Source: an uncultured Smithella sp. (GTDB lineage: Bacteria > Desulfobacterota > Syntrophia > Syntrophales > Smithellaceae). Taken from it: 64,000 bases of DNA. The DNA is taken from positions 8,130-72,129 of the forward strand of contig CAYZRT010000001.1 in NCBI GenBank assembly GCA_964480875.1. Direction: 5' to 3'. The notes beneath the pieces were generated by a model. The model did not search any database. It was not told the DNA's origin and saw nothing but the letters and a program-made list of their open reading frames with translations. Positions 16,489 to 39,921 of this stretch are shown here, piece after piece. The first letter of the stretch is position 1, and each line of letters starts with the position of its first letter. Both the position numbers and the translations under genes were made by a program.

Positions 16489-18402
16489 TTATTGTTTTTT
16501 TGCGCATAGATCCTGCAATAACGCAATAAATTTATCAACAGGCATCGATCCCATATTTTGGCCGTCACGCATGCGGGGAGCAACCGCCCCGGCTTCCACT
16601 TCTTTATCGCCAATGACCAGCATATAGGGAATTTTCTGCATTTGCGCCTGGCGAATCTTGTATCCTAATTTTTCGTTTTCAAAATATCTTTCCGAGCGAA
16701 TACCCGCCTCGATGAATTTATGGTGAACGGTTTCGGCATAGGGGATATGTTTGTCCGTCACCGTCAGTAAAGTACACTGAACCGGCGAAAGCCAGACGGG
16801 AAATGCTCCCGCGTAATGTTCAATCAACACGCCCATGAAGCGTTCAATCGCTCCCAGAATCACCCTATGCAGCATGACCGGACGATGCTTTTCTCCGTCA
16901 GCGCCAATATAACTCAGATCGAATCTTTCAGGCAGCGTAAAGTCACACTGAATGGTTGCGCACTGCCATTTTCTTTTCAAGGCGTCTTTTAATTTAAAGT
17001 CAATTTTCGGACCGTAAAAAGCTCCATCGCCTTGATTCACTTCATAACGCATATGACTGTCCTTGAGGGCGCTTTCCAGAGCCATCGTTGCCAGATTCCA
17101 GTCTTCATCGGAACCGATTGATTTCTCCGGCCTGGTACTCAATTCGACTTCAAATTCGAAACCAAAAATACTCATCGCATCGTTGACAAAATCGGCAATG
17201 GCGCGAATTTCCGAGTTTAACTGTTCCGGGGTGCAAAGGATGTGTGCGTCATCCTGCGTAAACTGTCTGACCCTCATCAAGCCATGCAAGACACCGGTTT
17301 TTTCATGTCGATGAACCGTGCCCAATTCAAAATAGCGCAGGGGCAAGTCCCGATAACTTCTAATCTTTGATTTGTAAATCAACATGTGTGAAAGACAATT
17401 CATCGGTTTGATGCCGTAAATTTGTTCATCCACCTCGGTAAAATACATATTTTCGCGGTAATGATCAAAATGGCCTGATTTTTTCCAGAGATCAACTTTA
17501 AGAATCTGCGGCCCCATGACCATATCATAACCGCGTTTCAGGTGTTCCTTCCTTTCCCAATCTTCAATGAGATAGCGCAGCATCATTCCCTTGGGATGGA
17601 ATATGATCAGCCCTGCGCCTGCCTCTTCATTGACCTGAAAGAGATCAAGTTCTCTTCCCAGCCGGCGATGATCTCTTTTTTTCGCTTCTTCCAGTAAATT
17701 CAAATATTCATGGAGTTCAAGCTCGTTGGCAAATCCGGTGCCGTAAATCCGTTGTAACATTTGATTATTTTCATTGCCGCGCCAGTACGCTCCCGCAACA
17801 CTCAAAAGCTTGAAAGCTTTTATTCTTCCCGTTGAGGGTATGTGCGGTCCCCGGCACAAATCAATATAGGCTCCCTGTTGATAAATGCTGACGTCTTTGA
17901 TTTCTGCGGGCAAATCATTGATTAATTCAACCTTATAACTTTCACCTCTATTTTCAAATAACTTGATTGCCGCTTCACGAGTCAGTTCTTTCCGTATGAA
18001 TGGATTATCCTCTGCAATAATCTCTTTCATTCTTTTTTCAATTTTCGGAAAGTCCTCCATGGTAAAAGGTTCTTTATATTCAAAATCATAGTAAAAGCCG
18101 TCTTCAATGGAGGGTCCGATGCTTACTTTGGCGCCGGGAAAAACCTCCTGCACGGCCTGAGCCATGACGTGAGATATACTGTGACGCAAGATAGACAGAC
18201 CTTCGCTTGAGGATACGTCTATTAAATCAAGTTTCGAATTATCCGTGATGGGATAGCTTAAATCGACGGGCATCTTATTGACTTTTACCGCGACTAGATA
18301 AGATAACGTTTCCTTTTTCCATTCTTTTATCGCATCAAGTGCAGAAATTCCTGCCTTGAACAAAAGTTCCTTGTTATCCGGGAAAATAATTTTTATATCC
18401 AT
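16489..18402 (-). CDS. thrS: threonine--tRNA ligase
   Basis: 637 aa with TGS, editing, class II core and anticodon-binding regions. Confidence 0.97.
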
Positions 18403-18499: not shown

Positions 18500-18574
18500 T
18501 GGTAGGCAAGCAGGGATTTGAACCCTGGACATCCACCGCGTCAGGATGGCGCTCTCCCCCTGAGCTACTTGCCT
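18500..18574 (-). tRNA. tRNA-Val (anticodon GAC)
   Basis: Minus strand: AGGCAAG-TA-GCTC-AGGGGGA-GAGC-G-CCATC-CTGACGC-GGTGG-ATGTC-CAGGG-TTCAAAT-CCCTG-CTTGCCT-A-CCA. This is a full cloverleaf of 75 nt with an encoded CCA. Confidence 0.9.
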
Positions 18575-31659: not shown

Positions 31660-34600
31660 TTATAAACGACGATCTCTCCAGTAAAGGACATTTGTCATAT
31701 TGGGCGGTTTGGGAGCTTCACCCATCGTTTGTGTCAGAGCCGAAGTTCCCGCTCCACCACTGGCGGTCACATAAATATCCGCGGCGGTGTACCCCGGGCG
31801 ATAAGACACCAGAACGGAAGAACCAACGCCATGGCCTACATAATCGGTTCTGTTTGCAACAGTATTATTGGCTGCCGCATGAGCATCTGCCGCAGCGGCG
31901 GCCGCAGCGGCGGCGAGGTCCATATCGCCCGGATTGGCAGCGGCTAATGCTGCCGCTCTCATATAGGCTTCTATGGCCGCGAGGGCAGTTGCGCTAAGCG
32001 TTGCATCCTGCATGCCGATGCCATAAAAACAATTAATTGCATAGAGAAAAGCATCTCCGGCTTCTCCGCAGGCGTTTCCCGTGCCTTGCTCGGGAGTATA
32101 TGTTGTAAAGTAGAGAATACTGTTGAACAAGGCCATATCGGAAATCATTTTTTCCCCTTGAGGACCGGTGATTGTCGTCCCGTCCGAACGCGTCAGTGAA
32201 TTGGTGGAAAGATTCATATACCATCCGCGCGCGCTGCTGAAATCAATCAGAGGATCTGACGTAACGTTGGCCAATTGAGACGAGGTATAGGTCGAAGAAA
32301 AATTGGTGTCTTCTTTGATTCCATACACCCTGTTTTTTGTCGCGCTGGTGTCCGGATCTGCAGTTGTCGGTTTATAGATGGGATCATAATTTTCGCCTGT
32401 GCCGAAATATATCCATATATAACCGTCAGTGTCTTTGGTTGCCACGGGCTGGGTAAATATCTGTTTATGCGTGTTGACGGGAGTAACCATGCCCGACCCT
32501 CTTTCCTCATTCGTCGAGCTGAAGAGACGGCTGCCGCTCCAGTTTGACGTATTGCAGGACGTGCAGGGCGATGCCGTGTAGCCGTCCGTTTTTCCGCAAT
32601 AGGAGCAATACGGATCTTTCGCGCATAGGCGGAAACGCCATATATTGCCTCCCAGGTCTCCCACATAGACCGTATCGACGAATCCGTCATTATCGATGTC
32701 AATGGGCAAAGGCGAGGACGCCAAGGAAAAATCCATATACGGACTGGTCGTTGACGTGACCGAGGAGCCGTGCGTAAAACTCCAGATGATGGAGCCATCG
32801 CTCAGATCCACGACAAAGAACCCTTTGCCGGAGCTGCCCGTTGCCGGCGTATTGCAGGCGGTCGAGGTTGTTCCGTCGGCTGACAGGCAGGCGGCCGAGC
32901 TGTATCCACCTCCGATGAACCCGACCCATTTTTCATTGCCGCCGATCTTGACGCGGCCGGTTTGCATTTTGCTCCAGGCTTGACCCAGAAAGGGCGCCTG
33001 TGAAGCATTTGGCATCAGGTGCCACTTGTATGTGGGGGTTGAAGCGGTTGAATCGGTCACATCCAGGGCGTACAAACCGCAGTAATAAGGGTAATTGGTC
33101 GCATCATACGTCCCGCTGAATCCGCCCGTGCTGGCCGAATAGCAGTTGGACGAACTGCTCCACAGATAATTTCCTGAACCCTGCCCTTCGCCGAAGACAG
33201 CCAGGGTTTTCCATTCGCAGTTGGCGGCGGATGTGCAGGTTTTGCTGATGCCGCTGCTGCTCGATGCAGGCAGCCAGGCATCAAATACATTGATGGGTCC
33301 GTCTATGAAAAAATCGTGGCTGCTCAGGGAAGCGCGATCGGCATGAGAATAATGAGCAATGGGTGACAGCTTCTGCAAAAGATTCGGAGGAATAAAGCTC
33401 CACAGTTCGTCGCCGCCTCCCGCACAATCCGTGCCGGAGCCGGAACTGCCTGTTTTAAAACAATGCAACTGACCGTCGTTGCCGCCGGCCAGAATAATCT
33501 GTGCGCCGTTGGCCGCATACCGCGGATGATAACTTCGAAATGCATTATATGATACCGCGTCGCATTCCCGCGGGTCGTAAAAGAATGGCTTGGGCGTCTT
33601 GACAATGGCGGGATTTGTATGGAACAAATCACCCAGTTTCCACACTTCTCCATTAACAAGCTCCAGATTGTACGCCGGATCGCCGCGGTAAAACCCGACC
33701 ACCGAATCTACCGTATGGAACGGGTGGCCGGTGATTCCCAGGTCGGCGGCCGTCAGATTGCCGGTTTCAAAACCGGTCATCACCCCGTTTTTCAGCGTCC
33801 ACATACTCCGGTCGGAGGCTTCTCTGATGCTTAACTTTTCACCCGCATCCCAACACTGGGGTGTTATAAGATTACCGTCGTTGCCGATCTGATATTTCTT
33901 CATATGCCCCGGCCAGAAGGGCTCTTTACTTGAACCGGAGTTGTTTTTGGGATCGAATGAAACTTCATAAATAAAATTTTCATCCTGAACGCGGGCCGCG
34001 GCAACCGAGGCCTGCGATGAAAAGGAATAAGTGGCTTCCGCGATCATGGTCAAAGCCGTTCGAACGGAGTTGACCAGTTCCTGAGGATTACTGGCCATAA
34101 ACGCGTATCCCCTTAACGTCTTATCCTTGGGATCGGTTCCGCTGGTGCAGGGATCGTCTCCCACGGTTACGGCGGCTGTGTCCCCCGACTGTGTTGCATT
34201 CGGATTTCTCGTTTCGCCGTAATAGGCGGCCCAGTTCAACGTGTCTTGCAGAGCAGTCGGCATATCGCCTCCGAAACCAACCACGTAAACCTTGTATCCG
34301 GCTTCGGCGGCCTTTTTCGCCCAGTAGACGGGGGCTCTTCGTTGCGCCGTGCAGGTTGTCGAACCGTTGCCACAACTATACCCGCCGGAACCGGGACACG
34401 AAAAAGTATCTTCTCCGTCGGTGATCAGAATAATGGATTTATTTCTGCACGAAGCGGCTGCGTCCAGTCCTCTATGATAGTCCAGAAATTTTTTGGATTC
34501 ATTCAGGGAGTCTCCAATGGGCGTTCCTCCGCTTATGCCATAGCCGGCAATGCATTCTCTGGCGGGATCAGTCGCGGAGCAGGAAGATGCCGTTGAGGCG

Positions 34601-35790
34601 CAGGACGCATCATTGCAGAACAGGCTTGCATAAGGCGTCGTGGTGGTATTGTCGCTTTGCGTCATGCTCCAGGAGAGCCTGGTGCAACCGTAGTCCCAGG
34701 GATTACTGTGGATGGTATCGTTGTCCTGGCTGCCGCAGTTGTAATAGCGCATTAATCCGATTCTCATGCCCAGGCTGGTCACGTCTGCCGACGTCAGGCT
34801 GTTGTCGCTCGTGTCATCCAATAATTGAAACAAGGCCCGTTTGGCGATTTTAATCTTGGAGCAATCCGTTCGTGTTCCGGTATCGTTATCATTATAAAAC
34901 GGACCTTCGCAAGTTTCCGTATCGCTGTATATATAACTTGACCCGGAGGGGGAACAGGCCTTGCTGCAATTTTGGCAGATCGTTGTATGGCCGGTTCCCG
35001 GTGTATTATAGAAAGGTCCGGTGGTGCAATCCGTTTCGCTGTAAACGACGGCGGGCGTTGTGCAGGTTGACGAAACGATACATTCCGTCGTATGGCCGGA
35101 TCCCGATGTTTTGTAGAAGGGACCGGTGGAACAGTCTGTTTCGGTATAACCGGGACCGAACGCCGCACACTGTCTGTACTTTTTACAGGCTGTCGTATGG
35201 CCGGATCCCGATGTTTTGTAGAAAGGACCGTTGTGACAGTTCGTGGCGGTATATACCGTATCCGGAATGTATGTACTGACGCGGCAATCTTTCGAGTGAT
35301 TCCTCCGATCGTAATCTCTATAAAAAGGACCATTTGTGGATCCACAACTTGAGCTTCTGTTGATGTAAAGATACCAACCCACGTCCAATTGGTCCGAACC
35401 CGGCGTCAAATAATAAGGCCCATCCACATTGCAGTCCGACCCGGCGACATAAAGATTTTGGGTGGTCATGGCGTCGCCCGACGGCGGGGTGGTGGTATAA
35501 GGGCCGTCGGAGCTGCAGTTGGCGGCTTCCACATAAAGAGTGGATGGCGTGCTTCTTACGACCGGATCGGCGTAATACGGTTCGACGCATGAGCTGCCGC
35601 AGGCATAGAACGTCGGATTCGAGCCATGCGGAAGCCACTGCATGCTTCCGGAGAGGTCGAGAACGATTAAGGCGTCGGGTTCCGTTGTAACCGTCCAGAG
35701 CGCGTCGTCATCGGCGTTAGAAAAAACGGAGAACAACGCGACGATGAGCACGACGATAATTGTTATATATATTTTTCTTAGCATAATCAT
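31660..35790 (-). CDS. pilY1: PilY1-like type IV pilus tip-associated adhesin with interrupted vWA domain and C-terminal beta-propeller
   Basis: 1376 aa with a signal peptide. The vWA/MIDAS elements are split (LIVLDLSGSM at aa 41-50, GGTPIGDSL at about 421-429, IILITDGED at about 453-461). The PilC/PilY1-type propeller has the Ca-site-like PIDIDNDGFVDTVYVGDLGGNIWRF. It follows pilX in the canonical fimU-pilVWXY1 order. Confidence 0.8.
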   Translation of the reverse strand: MIMLRKIYITIIVVLIVALFSVFSNADDDALWTVTTEPDALIVLDLSGSMQWLPHGSNPTFYACGSSCVEPYYADPVVRSTPSTLYVEAANCSSDGPYTTTPPSGDAMTTQNLYVAGSDCNVDGPYYLTPGSDQLDVGWYLYINRSSSCGSTNGPFYRDYDRRNHSKDCRVSTYIPDTVYTATNCHNGPFYKTSGSGHTTACKKYRQCAAFGPGYTETDCSTGPFYKTSGSGHTTECIVSSTCTTPAVVYSETDCTTGPFYNTPGTGHTTICQNCSKACSPSGSSYIYSDTETCEGPFYNDNDTGTRTDCSKIKIAKRALFQLLDDTSDNSLTSADVTSLGMRIGLMRYYNCGSQDNDTIHSNPWDYGCTRLSWSMTQSDNTTTTPYASLFCNDASCASTASSCSATDPARECIAGYGISGGTPIGDSLNESKKFLDYHRGLDAAASCRNKSIILITDGEDTFSCPGSGGYSCGNGSTTCTAQRRAPVYWAKKAAEAGYKVYVVGFGGDMPTALQDTLNWAAYYGETRNPNATQSGDTAAVTVGDDPCTSGTDPKDKTLRGYAFMASNPQELVNSVRTALTMIAEATYSFSSQASVAAARVQDENFIYEVSFDPKNNSGSSKEPFWPGHMKKYQIGNDGNLITPQCWDAGEKLSIREASDRSMWTLKNGVMTGFETGNLTAADLGITGHPFHTVDSVVGFYRGDPAYNLELVNGEVWKLGDLFHTNPAIVKTPKPFFYDPRECDAVSYNAFRSYHPRYAANGAQIILAGGNDGQLHCFKTGSSGSGTDCAGGGDELWSFIPPNLLQKLSPIAHYSHADRASLSSHDFFIDGPINVFDAWLPASSSSGISKTCTSAANCEWKTLAVFGEGQGSGNYLWSSSSNCYSASTGGFSGTYDATNYPYYCGLYALDVTDSTASTPTYKWHLMPNASQAPFLGQAWSKMQTGRVKIGGNEKWVGFIGGGYSSAACLSADGTTSTACNTPATGSSGKGFFVVDLSDGSIIWSFTHGSSVTSTTSPYMDFSLASSPLPIDIDNDGFVDTVYVGDLGGNIWRFRLCAKDPYCSYCGKTDGYTASPCTSCNTSNWSGSRLFSSTNEERGSGMVTPVNTHKQIFTQPVATKDTDGYIWIYFGTGENYDPIYKPTTADPDTSATKNRVYGIKEDTNFSSTYTSSQLANVTSDPLIDFSSARGWYMNLSTNSLTRSDGTTITGPQGEKMISDMALFNSILYFTTYTPEQGTGNACGEAGDAFLYAINCFYGIGMQDATLSATALAAIEAYMRAAALAAANPGDMDLAAAAAAAAADAHAAANNTVANRTDYVGHGVGSSVLVSYRPGYTAADIYVTASGGAGTSALTQTMGEAPKPPNMTNVLYWRDRRL

Positions 35791-35798
35791 TACCTCCT

Positions 35799-36362
35799 CT
35801 AATTTTCTCCTATTGGCACTGGACCGAATCCGACGCCAACCCCAACTTTTGCTTGTGTTTTATATGACTCGTTTTTTCCTACAACGGTTGTATCGTAACG
35901 CTGATATCCGTAAGACATAGCGCTTGAACCCCCTCCCGCTAATGAAAAACCTACGGCCTGCACGGGTGCTTTGTCCGTACTTTCACGGGGCGTGCAGACG
36001 GCGTATTCGGTGCGGGAATCCACTCCGCCGGGAATATCCATCCAGTCGTATAAGTTCTCGTTGAAATCATCCGTTCCGCAAACATTGTTGGAACCGTCGA
36101 GAGCATCGGTGTAATGATTGGCCGTTGTCCAGTTATCGGGTTCCGCATCTTTCATGATTTTGGAAACGCCGCTTTCCACGGCGGCCATCGCTTTTTTATG
36201 TCCCACGGCATCGCGACTGGTGAACAGATCCCCCGTGGACATGTTGATGACCAGTACCCCGATCGCGATCAGGATTAAACAGGCCATTAAAGCCGCCACA
36301 AGAGCGAAGCCTTTTTCATTTTCGGCATTATATGTCTTCATGATCATCCCACTATAAATCAT
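35799..36362 (-). CDS. pilX: PilX-like minor pilin
   Basis: 187 aa with a hydrophobic EKGFALVAALMACLILIAIGVL N-terminus that lacks Glu+5, as PilX_N proteins do. The ATG overlaps the pilW TGA (ATGA). Confidence 0.65.
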   Translation of the reverse strand: MIYSGMIMKTYNAENEKGFALVAALMACLILIAIGVLVINMSTGDLFTSRDAVGHKKAMAAVESGVSKIMKDAEPDNWTTANHYTDALDGSNNVCGTDDFNENLYDWMDIPGGVDSRTEYAVCTPRESTDKAPVQAVGFSLAGGGSSAMSYGYQRYDTTVVGKNESYKTQAKVGVGVGFGPVPIGEN

Positions 36363-37117
36363 TCTGTATAAAGCTTTGTAAAATGGTTGCGCGGTATGAC
36401 ACTTGTCGAATAGATAATCCGTCTCGGCGTCTGCTGTCCGGCATCCCTGGATGACGTATCCACCACCAGCGTAATTTCAATCCGCCTGATGGCCGGTATG
36501 CCCATTGTCGGATCGGTGGATCCGGTGGCAACGATTGCCGATATATCCGTGCCTGCGCCGTTGAAATACCGGAATACGGGTATTCCCGCCGCATCATTTT
36601 CCACGGAAACGGTTTTCGCTTTGTCGTCGTTACCTCCCAGCAAGGACTGTTGCCCCCCGCAATTGGTACCGTTGCCCGTTACGCGTGTTATGCGCCTGTT
36701 TGCCTTGTCATAATTGTACTTTATAATCTCACTCGGAGCATCGATGCGCCCATTTCCGTTTGCATCCGGGTCTGAAGGATCAGTGATGTCCATCTCTACG
36801 GCTATCGCATCGGCGGATGCTTCCTGAATCCCCCTGTTGATCGGGTTGGCGGCCGCACCGGTGCAGGCAGATGCATTGACCCACAGCCCCTCCAGCGATT
36901 CCGGATTGAAGGACGCCATCCGGATTTCCGCGGCCATTAATTCCAGCACGCCGCGCGCATCCTGTTGGGCGATGATTCTTCTCTCGATTCCCGACGATGA
37001 ACGAAGCGACATGTTGAGAAAAGAGTAAATGGCCGTCAGAACCAGCGAGGCAACGAACATCGCCACGATAAGTTCCACTAATGAAAAGCCTTTTTCTTCT
37101 TTCATAACTTTTAACAT
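36359..37117 (-). CDS. pilW: PilW-like minor pilin
   Basis: Prepilin signal MLKVMKEEKG/FSLVELIVAM. I chose the start at M24 of the tracked ORF because its ATG overlaps the pilV stop (TGATG). Confidence 0.65.
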   Translation of the reverse strand: MLKVMKEEKGFSLVELIVAMFVASLVLTAIYSFLNMSLRSSSGIERRIIAQQDARGVLELMAAEIRMASFNPESLEGLWVNASACTGAAANPINRGIQEASADAIAVEMDITDPSDPDANGNGRIDAPSEIIKYNYDKANRRITRVTGNGTNCGGQQSLLGGNDDKAKTVSVENDAAGIPVFRYFNGAGTDISAIVATGSTDPTMGIPAIRRIEITLVVDTSSRDAGQQTPRRIIYSTSVIPRNHFTKLYTE

Positions 37118-37560
37118 CAAAACCGGTAAGTCTCCTGACGGCTTACTTCGACGCTCTCGGAAATGCCTCTCGGGCTGCCCGTCCACGTCACGTTAACCGT
37201 CACCAAAAAAGCTTCCGGGTCCGCATTGGTTTGAGTGATAACCACACGAATCGTGTACTCTACATCCCCCCGTATCGGCGTGCTGCTTCCGCTTGTCGTG
37301 ACGGTTTTGTACGTTAATTCATTCCACTCCTGATCTCCGACGGAAACAGGATTGTTGGGGTTGGCAATGTCAACATAATACCTTTCCAATGTATTGTGCA
37401 GAATGCCCGCTGCCCGTCCCACATAGTCGGCTTTGGCCATCGACCTCCATCCCGTATCCTGAAGCGACGCCAGCGTTATCAAGCCGACGGAAATCAGCAT
37501 AATCGCAATAAGCACCTCGACCATGCTCATGCCTTTTTTATTACATGTTGTACTCAACAT
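37117..37560 (-). CDS. pilV: PilV-like minor pilin
   Basis: 147 aa with prepilin signal ..NKKG/MSMVEVLIAIMLISVGL. Confidence 0.65.
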   Translation of the reverse strand: MLSTTCNKKGMSMVEVLIAIMLISVGLITLASLQDTGWRSMAKADYVGRAAGILHNTLERYYVDIANPNNPVSVGDQEWNELTYKTVTTSGSSTPIRGDVEYTIRVVITQTNADPEAFLVTVNVTWTGSPRGISESVEVSRQETYRF

Positions 37561-38014
37561 ACGTTTTTCCCGTAATCGTGCTGGTAATGATAGCCTGAGA
37601 CCCTCTGTCGTTTTCTATTGTAACGCTTCCGTTCGAACAGATTCCCCGCGCCCGACATTCAATATTATCGCCGGCATAGGTGATGTCGTCTATTCTCACC
37701 CCTGAACTCAATCCCAGCGTTGAAGGGCTCTTTGTTTCCACGGTCGCATAAGCGCTGCAATCGTTGTTTCCCCTCTCAATGACATAGTTATTATTGCTTT
37801 CACTGAATGTGATACGGTGGCATAACCCTCTCGACACGGCTTGTTGTTTTATTTTGGCGATATCCGTTGTTATGGCCCGGGTATAACTTCGTAAATCAGC
37901 GTTGCTCACAAAACGTTTCCAGCTTAACGATGCGATAACGCCCACAATGGCAATGATAGCCAGTACTATTAAAATTTCAATCAGGGTCATGCCTTTTACA
38001 TTCGTAATTTTCAC
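37541..38014 (-). CDS. fimU: FimU/GspH-family minor pilin
   Basis: 157 aa from a GTG start, with prepilin signal MKITNVKG/MTLIEILIVLAIIAI. It overlaps pilV by 20 nt. Confidence 0.65.
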   Translation of the reverse strand: MKITNVKGMTLIEILIVLAIIAIVGVIASLSWKRFVSNADLRSYTRAITTDIAKIKQQAVSRGLCHRITFSESNNNYVIERGNNDCSAYATVETKSPSTLGLSSGVRIDDITYAGDNIECRARGICSNGSVTIENDRGSQAIITSTITGKTYVEYNM

Positions 38015-38232: not shown

Positions 38233-39003
38233 TCAATAGTCCCAGATGATAAACCTCATAAAATCGGCTCCCCAGAAAATATAAGCCACGGCAGCGGCGG
38301 ATAAAAAAGGGCCGAAGGGAATCGCATACTTTGTATCCTGTTTTTTGATAATCATGGCCGCAACACCGATCACTGCCCCCGACAATGAACTGAATAAAAG
38401 AATGAAAATGAGCGATTTCCAGCCGAGAAATCCACCGATCATGGCCAGTAATTTTATATCGCCGCCGCCCATCCCCTCTCTTTTGGTAATCAATTCATAA
38501 ACGAATGCAATGATAAAAAGAACACCCCCGCCAATCAACAAACCCAGCAGGACTTCCGTCCAGGGAATTTTGACAATGAAAACAGCCGCCAGAAAAAATA
38601 TGGGGATGCCGGGCAACGTCAAAATATCGGGGATGATTTGATGATCCCAATCAATGAATGTAATGACAATCAGTACGGCGGTAAAAATGAAAAAAATAAA
38701 GAAATTCAGGGAAAGACCGAACTTTAAAAATAACAGCAACGTCATCATTGCTGTAATGAATTCCACCAGTGGATAGCGAAATGAAATCTTGTTCCCGCAA
38801 TCACGGCATTTGCCGCGCAGAAGAAAATAGCTGATGATCGGAATGTTGTCCCCGTAACGTATTGCGTGCTGACAATTAGGACACTGAGATGACGGTTTGA
38901 TGATTGATTTATGTTCCGGAAGCCGGAAAATGCAAACATTCAGAAAACTGCCTACCGCAGCGCCAAAAATAAAAGCTAAACTATTCATTAGAAATAACAT
39001 CAT
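38233..39003 (-). CDS. pilD: prepilin peptidase / N-methyltransferase (A24 family)
   Basis: 256 aa with CPNC..CRDC zinc motifs in the N-terminal domain. It is polytopic and has the GGGDIKLLAMIG aspartyl-protease motif. Confidence 0.92.
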   Translation of the reverse strand: MMLFLMNSLAFIFGAAVGSFLNVCIFRLPEHKSIIKPSSQCPNCQHAIRYGDNIPIISYFLLRGKCRDCGNKISFRYPLVEFITAMMTLLLFLKFGLSLNFFIFFIFTAVLIVITFIDWDHQIIPDILTLPGIPIFFLAAVFIVKIPWTEVLLGLLIGGGVLFIIAFVYELITKREGMGGGDIKLLAMIGGFLGWKSLIFILLFSSLSGAVIGVAAMIIKKQDTKYAIPFGPFLSAAAVAYIFWGADFMRFIIWDY

Positions 39004-39074
39004 ATCGTTACCATTTTATCTTTTTTTATGATGACAGGGTAATATCGGAGAAATGATGCAATACTGGAGAGTCG

Positions 39075-39170
39075 CCAGGCAGTTCTGCAACCATATCCTC
39101 CTATCACTAAGACTTAGGTCAGTAACTTTGTGTCCCGTCTTTTCAGTACGGTTTACCCTTATCAAGCTTT
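39075..39170 (-). promoter_or_regulatory. candidate c-di-GMP-I (GEMM) riboswitch aptamer in the pilD leader
   Basis: Minus strand: GAUAAGGGUAAACC-GUACUGAAAAGAC-GGGACACAAAG-UUACUGA-CCUAAG-UCUUAGUGAUAGGAGGA-UAUGG-UUGCAGAACUGCC. The junction strings resemble Vc2 (AGGGCAAACC..GGGACGCAAAG). One hairpin is capped by GAAA, and both halves of the 11-nt GAAA tetraloop receptor (CCUAAG/UAUGG) sit in the second hairpin. I could not identify the closing P1 helix by eye. Confidence 0.6.
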
Positions 39171-39176
39171 GAATAT

Positions 39177-39205
39177 ATTTTAAAGCTGAATATAATAAAA
39201 GTCAA
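39177..39205 (-). promoter_or_regulatory. candidate sigma-70 promoter driving the riboswitch-pilD transcript
   Basis: The minus strand reads TTGACT-17 nt-TAAAAT. It would give a leader of about 165 nt before the pilD ATG. Confidence 0.5.
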
Positions 39206-39376: not shown

Positions 39377-39700
39377 GTTTGTCCTTTTTGTTGAGCCGGC
39401 TAATGGGGTTGCTGGGTTTGCCCCTCTTGTCGAGCCTGCTCTTGCTGGGGTTGTCCTTCTTGTTGAGCCTGCTGTTGTCGAGTTTGTTCCTCTTGTTGTG
39501 GCCCCTGCTGTGGTTGCTGGGGTTGTCTTTCTTGTTGAGTCTGCTGTTGTCGAGTTTGTTCCTCTTGTTGTGGCCCTTGCTGTGGTTGCTGGGTTTGTCT
39601 TTCTTGTTGAGCCTGCTGTTGTCGAGTTTGTTCCTCTTGTTGTGGCCCCTGCTGTGGTTGCTGGATTTGTCCCTCTTGTTGGGGTCTCTGCTGTGGTTGC
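39377..39700. repeat. 72-bp tandem repeat (about 4.5 copies) inside the Gln-rich CDS
   Basis: Unit boundaries at about 39377, 39449, 39521, 39593 and 39665, with a few substitutions per copy. The repeat keeps several frames open on both strands. Confidence 0.85.
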
Positions 39701-39921
39701 GATGGGCCATAATCAGAGTATTTTAAAACACATTTTTCCATGCCATCTTGGGGGCTGCTCGTTATGATTATATTGCCATCACGGTCGATACAGCTGTATA
39801 GATCTCCCGCATAGCCTGAGGATAGAAAAACTACAATTATGCATGGTATTAGAAATACGGGTTTCATTTTAATTGTGTTCCTATCAAATGGTTGATCTCC
39901 AATCATGTTCCGTTTTCCCAC
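39400..39921 (-). CDS. secreted DUF4124-like protein with Gln-rich 24-aa tandem repeats
   Basis: 173 aa with a hydrophobic signal-like segment (VFLIPCIIVVFLSSGYA) and DLYSCIDRDGNIIITSSP..C (DUF4124-like). It then has about 3.5 copies of QQPQQGPQQEEQTRQQQAQQERQT. Confidence 0.7.
   Translation of the reverse strand: MGKRNMIGDQPFDRNTIKMKPVFLIPCIIVVFLSSGYAGDLYSCIDRDGNIIITSSPQDGMEKCVLKYSDYGPSQPQQRPQQEGQIQQPQQGPQQEEQTRQQQAQQERQTQQPQQGPQQEEQTRQQQTQQERQPQQPQQGPQQEEQTRQQQAQQEGQPQQEQARQEGQTQQPH

Follow-up and report, generated by a model that had tools for sequence, protein, structure and literature searches.

The window analysed here, a stretch of 64,000 nucleotides from an uncultured Smithella sp. 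(GenBank assembly GCA_964480875.1, contig CAYZRT010000001.1, positions 8,130 to 72,129 of the forward strand), carries on its minus strand the prepilin peptidase gene pilD, and the subject of this work is the leader of that gene. Judged by its sequence, the leader element is a class-I cyclic di-GMP (c-di-GMP) riboswitch of the GEMM-I, GAAA tetraloop/receptor type, and the locus is made up of the following features:

39177..39205, minus strand: sigma-70-type promoter, with the -35 box TTGACT (39205..39200), a 17-nt spacer and the -10 box TAAAAT (39182..39177), 10/12 matches
39075..39167, minus strand: c-di-GMP-I (GEMM-I) aptamer, tetraloop/receptor type, placed by the full RF01051 model, the orthologue model and the alignment structure
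38998..39014, minus strand: ribosome-binding region, a weak Shine-Dalgarno-like AUGGUAAC followed by AUGAUG (39003..38998)
38233..39003, minus strand: pilD, prepilin peptidase / N-methyltransferase, 256 aa (PF06750 A24_N_bact, E 3e-36; PF01478 Peptidase_A24, E 8.6e-24)
38014..37541, minus strand: GspH/FimU-like pseudopilin gene, by Pfam (N_methyl, GspH and PilX_N matches over the four pilin-like genes)
37560..37117, minus strand: PilV-like gene, with an N-terminal methylation motif
37186..36359, minus strand: PilW-like gene, with an N-terminal methylation motif
36362..35799, minus strand: PilX gene, by Pfam
31660..35790, minus strand: pilY1, coding for a 1376-aa pilus tip adhesin-like protein (PF05567 PilY1 beta-propeller, E 1.8e-12)

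When the whole 64-kb window was scanned with all 4227 Rfam families, two matches reached the gathering score, namely RF01051 (c-di-GMP-I) and one tRNA. The RF01051 match lay at 39167..39075 on the minus strand, covered model positions 1-87 of 87 and scored 65.7 bits (E 1.2e-10), the gathering score of this family being 35. In addition, a covariance model built from the orthologues gave the window aptamer 99.2 bits. The preliminary description of this DNA, which had been made by eye, had quoted the minus-strand sequence 39170..39075 exactly as it is present in the window and had proposed a c-di-GMP-I/GEMM riboswitch in the pilD leader, naming the RF01051 search as a check; the search was passed, and the proposal was borne out by the score as well as by covariation in about 50 orthologous leaders. 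The parts of the aptamer are the following:

39130..39156, minus strand: first aptamer hairpin, from the alignment to the model (P1 in Weinberg 2007, P1b/P2 in crystal-structure nomenclature)
39081..39127, minus strand: second aptamer hairpin, closed by A39127:U39081 and holding the 11-nt GAAA-tetraloop receptor
39163..39167, minus strand: 5' strand GCUUG of a proposed P1 closing helix, whose partner CUGGC (39078..39074) comes directly after the C92 equivalent
39157, minus strand: G20 equivalent (model position 11), from the alignment to RF01051

The first hairpin has the make-up by which GEMM was defined (PMC1950547), with a GU/AC stem of 2 bp (G39156:C39130 and U39155:A39131), an AAA internal loop and a 6-bp stem with a bulged A39147, CCGU(A)CU-GAAA-AGACGG, closed by the GAAA tetraloop (39144..39141). 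The second hairpin contains the P2 stem GUU(A)CUG/CAGAAC and the two halves of the type 1 tetraloop receptor, CCUAAG (39118..39113) and UAUGG (39095..39091), while the junction strings GGGUAAACC and GGGACACAAAG are both present and the two hairpins are joined by an AAA linker (CACAAAG in the window), whose three A's are invariant in the 39 leaders aligned below. All of these strings, hairpins and receptor halves had been listed beforehand and were seen again in the model alignment. As far as its sequence and predicted structure go, the element has every testable feature of the c-di-GMP-I family, including a position in the 5' untranslated region of a gene for environment, membrane or motility functions, where the aptamer stands between a conserved promoter with a predicted transcription start and pilD, followed by the minor pilins and PilY1.

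The conservation of this structure was assessed over the pilD leaders of related organisms. A pattern search for the aptamer core returned 38 distinct loci, in which it stood about 150 nt upstream of pilD, and these seeded the covariance model, with which the aptamer was found in 49 Smithellaceae loci (140–170 nt from pilD) and two more distant Syntrophales loci, always on the pilD strand and upstream of the gene. An exact-pattern scan of metagenome contigs also revealed the same aptamer in one independent sediment-metagenome contig (L081, related loci being cited here by such numbers), which is 87% identical over the leader and has the promoter of the window. In the alignment of 39 leaders, that is, the window and 38 relatives, the Rfam-type aptamer structure was paired in 96.6% of the cells and six pairs were changed on both sides; none of 500 shuffles equalled the observed pairing and covariation, and pairing fell to 31–49% when the 3' partners were slid. 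In the first hairpin the compensatory changes concerned the junction pair and three of the six pairs of the inner stem, and in the second, two pairs (96.6% of its cells paired), where the pair at columns 55:87 of alignment A2 was AU in 14 sequences, GC in 13 and GU in 11. As regards the junction pair U39155:A39131, it is C:G in 37 of the 38 related leaders and, within the alignment, U:A only in the window. L081 has the U:A pair too; since this contig is independent, the change is not a sequencing error but real and compensatory, as had been supposed for two substitutions, C to U and G to A, which proved to be the two sides of this one model pair.

The P1 helix was placed under the guidance of the P1 helix of the related Rfam model RF03167. 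Four of its five pairs form in the window, with one U-U mismatch, and the partner strand of the family is CGGGC; pairing amounts to 84.7% of the cells of alignment A2 versus 23–56% with the partner slid, and the helix GCUUG/CGGGC is compatible with the alignment. In the preliminary description neither P1 nor an intrinsic terminator could be found by eye; a candidate P1 and a platform hairpin do exist.

Three nucleotides are the expected contacts of the ligand. In GEMM-I RNAs, G20 recognises G-alpha of c-di-GMP and C92 pairs with G-beta (PMC6140456). The alignment to the Rfam consensus, from which we infer the mapping of the other two contacts onto the window, makes A39129 the A47 equivalent and C39079 the C92 equivalent. 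At the G20 equivalent, all 38 related leaders have a G, as the window has; the A47 equivalent is likewise invariant, and conservation of the C92 equivalent is 90% or more (U in L006); the position adjoining the G20 equivalent (G19) varies between A and G among the leaders. As the equivalents of G20, A47 and C92 are all present, c-di-GMP, and not cGAMP (3'3'-cyclic GMP-AMP), is the expected ligand, in agreement with the preliminary description, which had argued from the retained G39157. The c-di-GMP-I-GGC variant (RF03167, clan CL00126) carries a G at the A47 position; here the base is A39129, and clan competition kept RF01051. No gathering-score match to c-di-GMP-II (RF01786) was obtained in the 64-kb window.

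The promoter, which had already been described as TTGACT-17-TAAAAT, was found at the coordinates given above and is conserved in the 39-leader alignment: every leader has TTGA, conservation of the C and T after it is 90% or more, and the TATAAT/TAAAAT box aligns. The aptamer begins about 7–10 nt past the -10 box, and with a conserved promoter at this distance the RNA probably starts just before the aptamer, near 39171..39169, a few nucleotides 5' of it. At the other end of the leader, AUGGUAAC aligns with the UGGA/GGAG motif which in the relatives stands 10–14 nt ahead of the AUG. PilD is 74–81% identical to the PilD of many Smithella/Smithellaceae (Syntrophales) metagenome-assembled genomes (MAGs). 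Downstream, the four pilin-like genes (35799..38014) and pilY1 overlap or abut, and a gap of 218 nt separates pilD from the first of them; in several relatives the gap after pilD is about 50–60 nt. The order pilD, gspH/fimU-like, pilV-like, pilW-like, pilX, pilY1 is kept in most related loci, with pilY1 at the cluster end, a conserved gene order which indicates that the leader heads a pilus-priming and tip-adhesin cluster and not an isolated pilD. The earlier view, in which the switch controlled pilD and not a gene for a pilin or adhesin, had to be revised in this respect. Across the 218-nt gap, pilD is probably co-transcribed with the four minor pilins and pilY1.

Between the aptamer and the start codon, two further elements were predicted, the first of which would be central to the switch:

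39047..39101, minus strand: competing hairpin of the window, from minimum free energy (MFE) folds, mutually exclusive with the aptamer
39029..39042, minus strand: UUACCCUGUCAUCA, predicted to pair in the ligand-free state with UGAUAAGGGUAA (39164..39153), the 5' junction of the aptamer, in which the G20 equivalent lies

In the window, the 5' arm of the competing hairpin, GGAGGA-U-AUGGU-U-GCAG-A-ACUG (39101..39080), is the 3' half of the second aptamer hairpin, UAUGG included, and its 3' arm is CAGU-A-UUGC-AUCAU-UUCUCC (39066..39047), with the pyrimidine-rich AUCAUUUCUCC as the outer part; the inner helices alone (UGCAG-A-ACUG with CAGU-A-UUGCA) would leave UCAUUUCUCC as a tail after the stem. 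In the family, a conserved segment adjoining the aptamer on its 3' side, GUCCAGCAAUUCUGC, can form a helix with GCAGAACUGCCGGGC, a stretch made up of the C92 equivalent and the 3' strands of P1 and of the second aptamer hairpin. This pairing is present in 75.8% of the alignment cells versus 24–43% in slid registers, and its pair 93:129 is A:U in 21 sequences and G:C in 5. Moreover, nearly all relatives yield the hairpin when their sequences are folded singly, with energies of -12 to -21 kcal/mol and a variable upper stem. In the window and L081 it has been rebuilt in a register unlike that of the family, and its outer part is kept in L081. Because the hairpin takes up the 3' strands of both P1 and the second aptamer hairpin, it and the ligand-binding fold exclude each other. 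The unconstrained MFE fold contained the competing hairpin in all five cases inspected (window, L006, L008, L013 and L018), and it was more stable than the aptamer-enforced fold by 6.8 kcal/mol on average and by 17.5 kcal/mol in the window. A gap of this kind is to be expected if capture of the ligand in the course of transcription decides the state of the switch, and the binding energy of c-di-GMP, judged from the affinity of Vc2, could plausibly bridge it. With respect to the second element, CCC-containing motifs like UUACCCUGUCAUCA occur in many relatives, and the pairing with the 5' junction is not consistently conserved. The spacer that follows the hairpin is A-rich, 40–50 nt long and contains 20.5% C and 10.3% G.

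A TATAAT-like box was also observed directly after the competing hairpin in many relatives (for example L003, L006 and L047: CTGCTATAATA) and, in the window, at 39046..39038 (GATATTACC), where it was not called by the scanner. The box could lengthen the hairpin, its partner being the receptor half GAUAAGGUGG; alternatively, it could belong to a second promoter that is independent of the riboswitch, and a weak TTCAGA-like -35 box would then lie in the loop of the hairpin.

The best explanation of the whole, to which a probability of roughly 0.8 is given, is a GEMM-I switch at the 5' end of a sigma-70 transcript for pilD, and probably for the minor pilins and PilY1, working through a hairpin that excludes the aptamer. 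The transcript would start at the conserved sigma-70-type promoter, with the aptamer at its extreme 5' end. Bound c-di-GMP would lock the aptamer during transcription, and the competing hairpin would be blocked; with no ligand, the more stable competing hairpin would win. The hairpin is taken as the 'off' element because the terminator of the Geobacter pilM switch likewise sequesters the C92-equivalent strand, and c-di-GMP would then activate the pilus-priming operon. The direction is the weakest point of the scheme, because the hairpin has no canonical U-tract, and activation is held only tentatively, being somewhat favoured over repression, which is a possibility of lesser weight. A further and rather improbable variant is that the platform is a non-standard one, a long aptamer-excluding hairpin with neither a U-tract nor a conserved Shine-Dalgarno sequestor and with a spacer rich in A and C and poor in G behind it, acting via Rho, RNA stability or another route, by which c-di-GMP would set the supply of prepilin peptidase and of minor pilins and PilY1.

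The variants of the leader found among the related loci deserve separate mention. In L033, L039 and L032, pilD is kept and both aptamer and promoter are deleted (L033:5670-6020, L039:5670-6020, L032:3440-3790), which makes them natural 'aptamer knock-outs'; L033 and L039 also keep the minor-pilin/pilY1 cluster, and pilD comes there directly after an upstream gene. Remnants of the hairpin 3' arm are recognisable in L033 and L032 (CAATTCTGTTTAGCA; GTTCAGCATTCCTGA), and L039 retains just the Shine-Dalgarno-proximal part of the leader. These deletions fit either regulatory direction. The distant aptamers at L064:5467-5544, L065:5791-5868 and L080:1444-1518 were put in RF03167 by clan competition, yet they have an A at the A47 position, and the assignment seems due to their P1 helix and receptor-less architecture, not to a variant binding site. 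Finally, the contig L005 (JAKLFM010000099.1), labelled 'Bacteroidetes bacterium', shares the cluster and has a leader of the Smithella type and a PilD with 80% identity, with the aptamer about 380 nt before the pilD match instead of the usual distance of about 150 nt; it is probably a mis-binned contig.

Two alternatives concern the aptamer itself. That it might be a relic in decay, or might match the model by chance, and regulate nothing in this genome, its divergent platform and U:A pair being signs of drift, is hardly credible. It is true that three loci lost the aptamer and kept pilD, two of them (L033 and L039) with the cluster and L032 with pilD, and that the platform of the window departs from the family consensus; nevertheless, the E-value of the RF01051 match is 1.2e-10, the nucleotides of the ligand and tertiary contacts are all intact, the sole junction change is compensatory and common to the independent contig L081, the promoter is conserved, and the window and L081 keep a competing hairpin in its new register. 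Slightly less remote, though still very improbable, is an aptamer that senses cGAMP, or both dinucleotides, like the Geobacter GEMM-Ib, rather than c-di-GMP alone. The host belongs among the former Deltaproteobacteria, where GEMM-Ib is common, and bispecificity is known for some natural GEMM-I and GEMM-Ib RNAs (PMC6140456). However, the A that replaces G20 and defines the cGAMP-sensing GEMM-Ib (PMC6140456) is a G in the window and the 38 leaders, and wild-type Vc2, which has G20, discriminates against cGAMP (PMC6140456).

The alternative that matters most shares the aptamer with the preferred explanation and inverts the logic. Ligand binding would free the 3' arm of the hairpin (GUCCAGCA... 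in relatives, CAGUAUUGCAUCAUUUCUCC in the window), which would pair with the Shine-Dalgarno/start region in a thiM-type series of anti-anti-Shine-Dalgarno, anti-Shine-Dalgarno and Shine-Dalgarno elements, or would provide a Rho loading site together with the C-rich, G-poor spacer; such a mechanism is considered somewhat less probable than activation, although several observations speak for it and against the activating scheme. Pairing probabilities were computed for 36 leaders in the free, aptamer-closed and hairpin states, and the predicted probability of an unpaired AUG in the window fell from 0.39 in the free state to 0.00 with the aptamer closed. This masking is due to the CAUCAU boxes at 39058..39053 and 39033..39028 (minus strand), which are predicted to pair with the duplicated start AUGAUG (39003..38998), to which they are complementary. 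Over the 36 leaders, the accessibility of the Shine-Dalgarno region was slightly reduced in the bound mimic relative to the hairpin state (11 leaders versus 3, Wilcoxon p 0.019), and by eye the UCCAG of the 3' arm is complementary to the CUGGA/UUGGA Shine-Dalgarno motif of many relatives. Also, the base composition of the spacer would suit Rho, and L064 and L065, whose U-rich terminator hairpins form with the aptamer closed or not, resemble by eye terminator/antiterminator designs and could be OFF switches. The activating scheme is further weakened in that the scanner gave no terminator-like site from the end of the aptamer to the AUG, that no U run follows the full hairpin in most relatives, that P1 shows no covariation in alignment A2, and that ligand binding, the transcription start and co-transcription over the 218-nt gap are predictions.

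Against repression through masking of the start stands the behaviour of the family. The mean differences in accessibility are at most 0.03 and are not significant for the AUG or for the 30-nt ribosome site (p 0.6-0.7). Moreover, in the closest relative, L081, which has a single AUG, the effect on the AUG is reversed (0.37 to 0.63), and the masking in the window requires its own, window-specific ATGATG. When four well-aligned subclades were folded to a consensus, the only helices to emerge were those of the aptamer hairpin and the competing hairpin and weak long-range pairs of A-rich with U-rich segments, and no conserved helix paired the Shine-Dalgarno region. A conserved masking of the Shine-Dalgarno region or the AUG was therefore not found in the 36 leaders, the subclade folds or L081, and a general model of this kind was rejected, as was the more particular proposal, made in the preliminary description, that the start region is masked by pairing of GAUAUUACC with GGUAACGAUAU, which is predicted in the window only. 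With regard to Rho, a spacer of 40–50 nt is short for a Rho utilization (rut) site. L064 and L065 were discarded as guides to the direction, since folding could not resolve how their terminator hairpins are linked to the aptamer. A canonical intrinsic terminator between the aptamer and the AUG was discarded as well, the scanner giving none and the tails being U-poor in most relatives, although this test was low-powered: terminator-like sites in the window were not enriched over shuffles (21 versus 19.4 and 28 versus 21.2), so that the missing U-tract is weak evidence either way. A U-rich tail, with 5–6 U in the 8 nt after the inner stem, occurs only in the window and one subclade.

Some observations on the surrounding genes may be added. 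PilY1 is unusually long, its beta-propeller match being confined to residues 905–1163 of 1376, and its first 300 residues or so contain a Cys-rich repeat with recurring GPFY...TSGSGHTT motifs. The MAG JAJFTS01 (bin.256) has two pilD loci, L054 with the riboswitch and L031 without it, the upstream region of the latter matching that of L058, and the PilD under riboswitch control may not be the only prepilin peptidase of the cell. Gating of every prepilin-like substrate, which had been expected of a switch on pilD, is consequently not assured. Upstream of the leader, the gene at 39400..39921 (minus strand) codes for a secreted-looking Gln/Pro-rich protein with a 72-nt tandem repeat (3.3 copies, 94% matches) and no Pfam match; weak homologues of it stand near a tetratricopeptide repeat (TPR) gene in L028 and L036. 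The sole tRNA of the window, tRNA-Val (anticodon GAC; 18500..18574, minus strand), lies just upstream of a same-strand thrS-like gene starting at 18402. The remainder of the window is housekeeping chromosome (argS, ffh, trmD, pheT, thrS, dnaE and guaB, among others), and a survey of its other large open reading frames gave no further pilus or c-di-GMP genes.

As to the significance of these results, no new class of RNA or ligand is revealed; a known kind of RNA switch was found in a gene context for which no description could be traced, and with an atypical platform. The literature search returned no account of such a riboswitch (GEMM or c-di-GMP) in Smithella, nor of one that precedes pilD or a minor-pilin/pilY1 cluster; one apparent match proved to be the word 'Gemmatimonadota'. 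The switch would place the production of prepilin peptidase, minor pilins and PilY1, that is, the parts which initiate and tip the type IV pilus, directly under c-di-GMP at the RNA level. Smithella and other Syntrophales have a lifestyle that depends on contact with partner methanogens, and they are genetically hard to study. If the non-standard platform were true, it would amount to a checkpoint that acts where pili are initiated and not at the major pilin, in contact-dependent syntrophs. Furthermore, the roughly 50 natural variants constitute a comparative set for the coupling of GEMM-I to an atypical platform; among them are loci from which the aptamer has been deleted in nature, and a sublineage in which the junction pair is compensatory and the hairpin has been rebuilt.

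Among the known systems, Vc2 of Vibrio cholerae (RF01051; 3IRW / 3MXH) is the closest in its aptamer, with which the Smithella element shares the two hairpins, the GAAA tetraloop docking in an 11-nt receptor, the AAA linker and the G20, A47 and C92 ligand contacts. The junctions are near-identical (AGGGUAAACC and GGGACACAAAG here, AGGGCAAACC and GGGACGCAAAG in Vc2), with a junction pair that is C:G in Vc2 and U:A in the window. The platforms are unrelated, and the gene downstream is of the tfoY type in Vibrio, whereas here it is the pilD pilus cluster. In Clostridioides difficile, a c-di-GMP-II riboswitch is situated upstream of pilA1, so that type IV pilus genes directly follow the second messenger. 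That system is alike in being a c-di-GMP riboswitch on type IV pilus genes; however, it is of another class (RF01786), belongs to a Gram-positive host and acts on the major pilin operon.

On the question of direction, two further switches may be compared. Cd1 of C. difficile is a c-di-GMP-I transcriptional OFF switch (PMC9262584); its aptamer is of the same class, which shows that OFF logic is possible within it, but in Cd1 a canonical terminator can be present together with the aptamer, both competing with an antiterminator, a three-part design that is not visible in the window. The pilM switch of Geobacter metallireducens, a GEMM-Ib, is a transcriptional ON switch with mutually exclusive aptamer and terminator, the latter sequestering the ligand-pairing C (PMC9262584). 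Like the Smithella leader, it precedes a polycistronic operon for type IV pili in a host from the former Deltaproteobacteria, and its aptamer-excluding platform hairpin sequesters the strand with the ligand-pairing cytosine. It differs in having A at position 20, where G stands here, and in sensing cGAMP; in its recognised intrinsic terminator, the Smithellaceae hairpin having no clear U-tract; and in regulating the alignment and secretin genes pilMNOPQ, and not the peptidase, minor pilins and PilY1. GEMM has been tied to pilus genes since its founding paper of 2007, in whose Table 2 cpaA, pilM, pilO, pilQ and pulF appear (PMC1950547), cpaA being the prepilin-peptidase family linked there to GEMM (PMC1950547).

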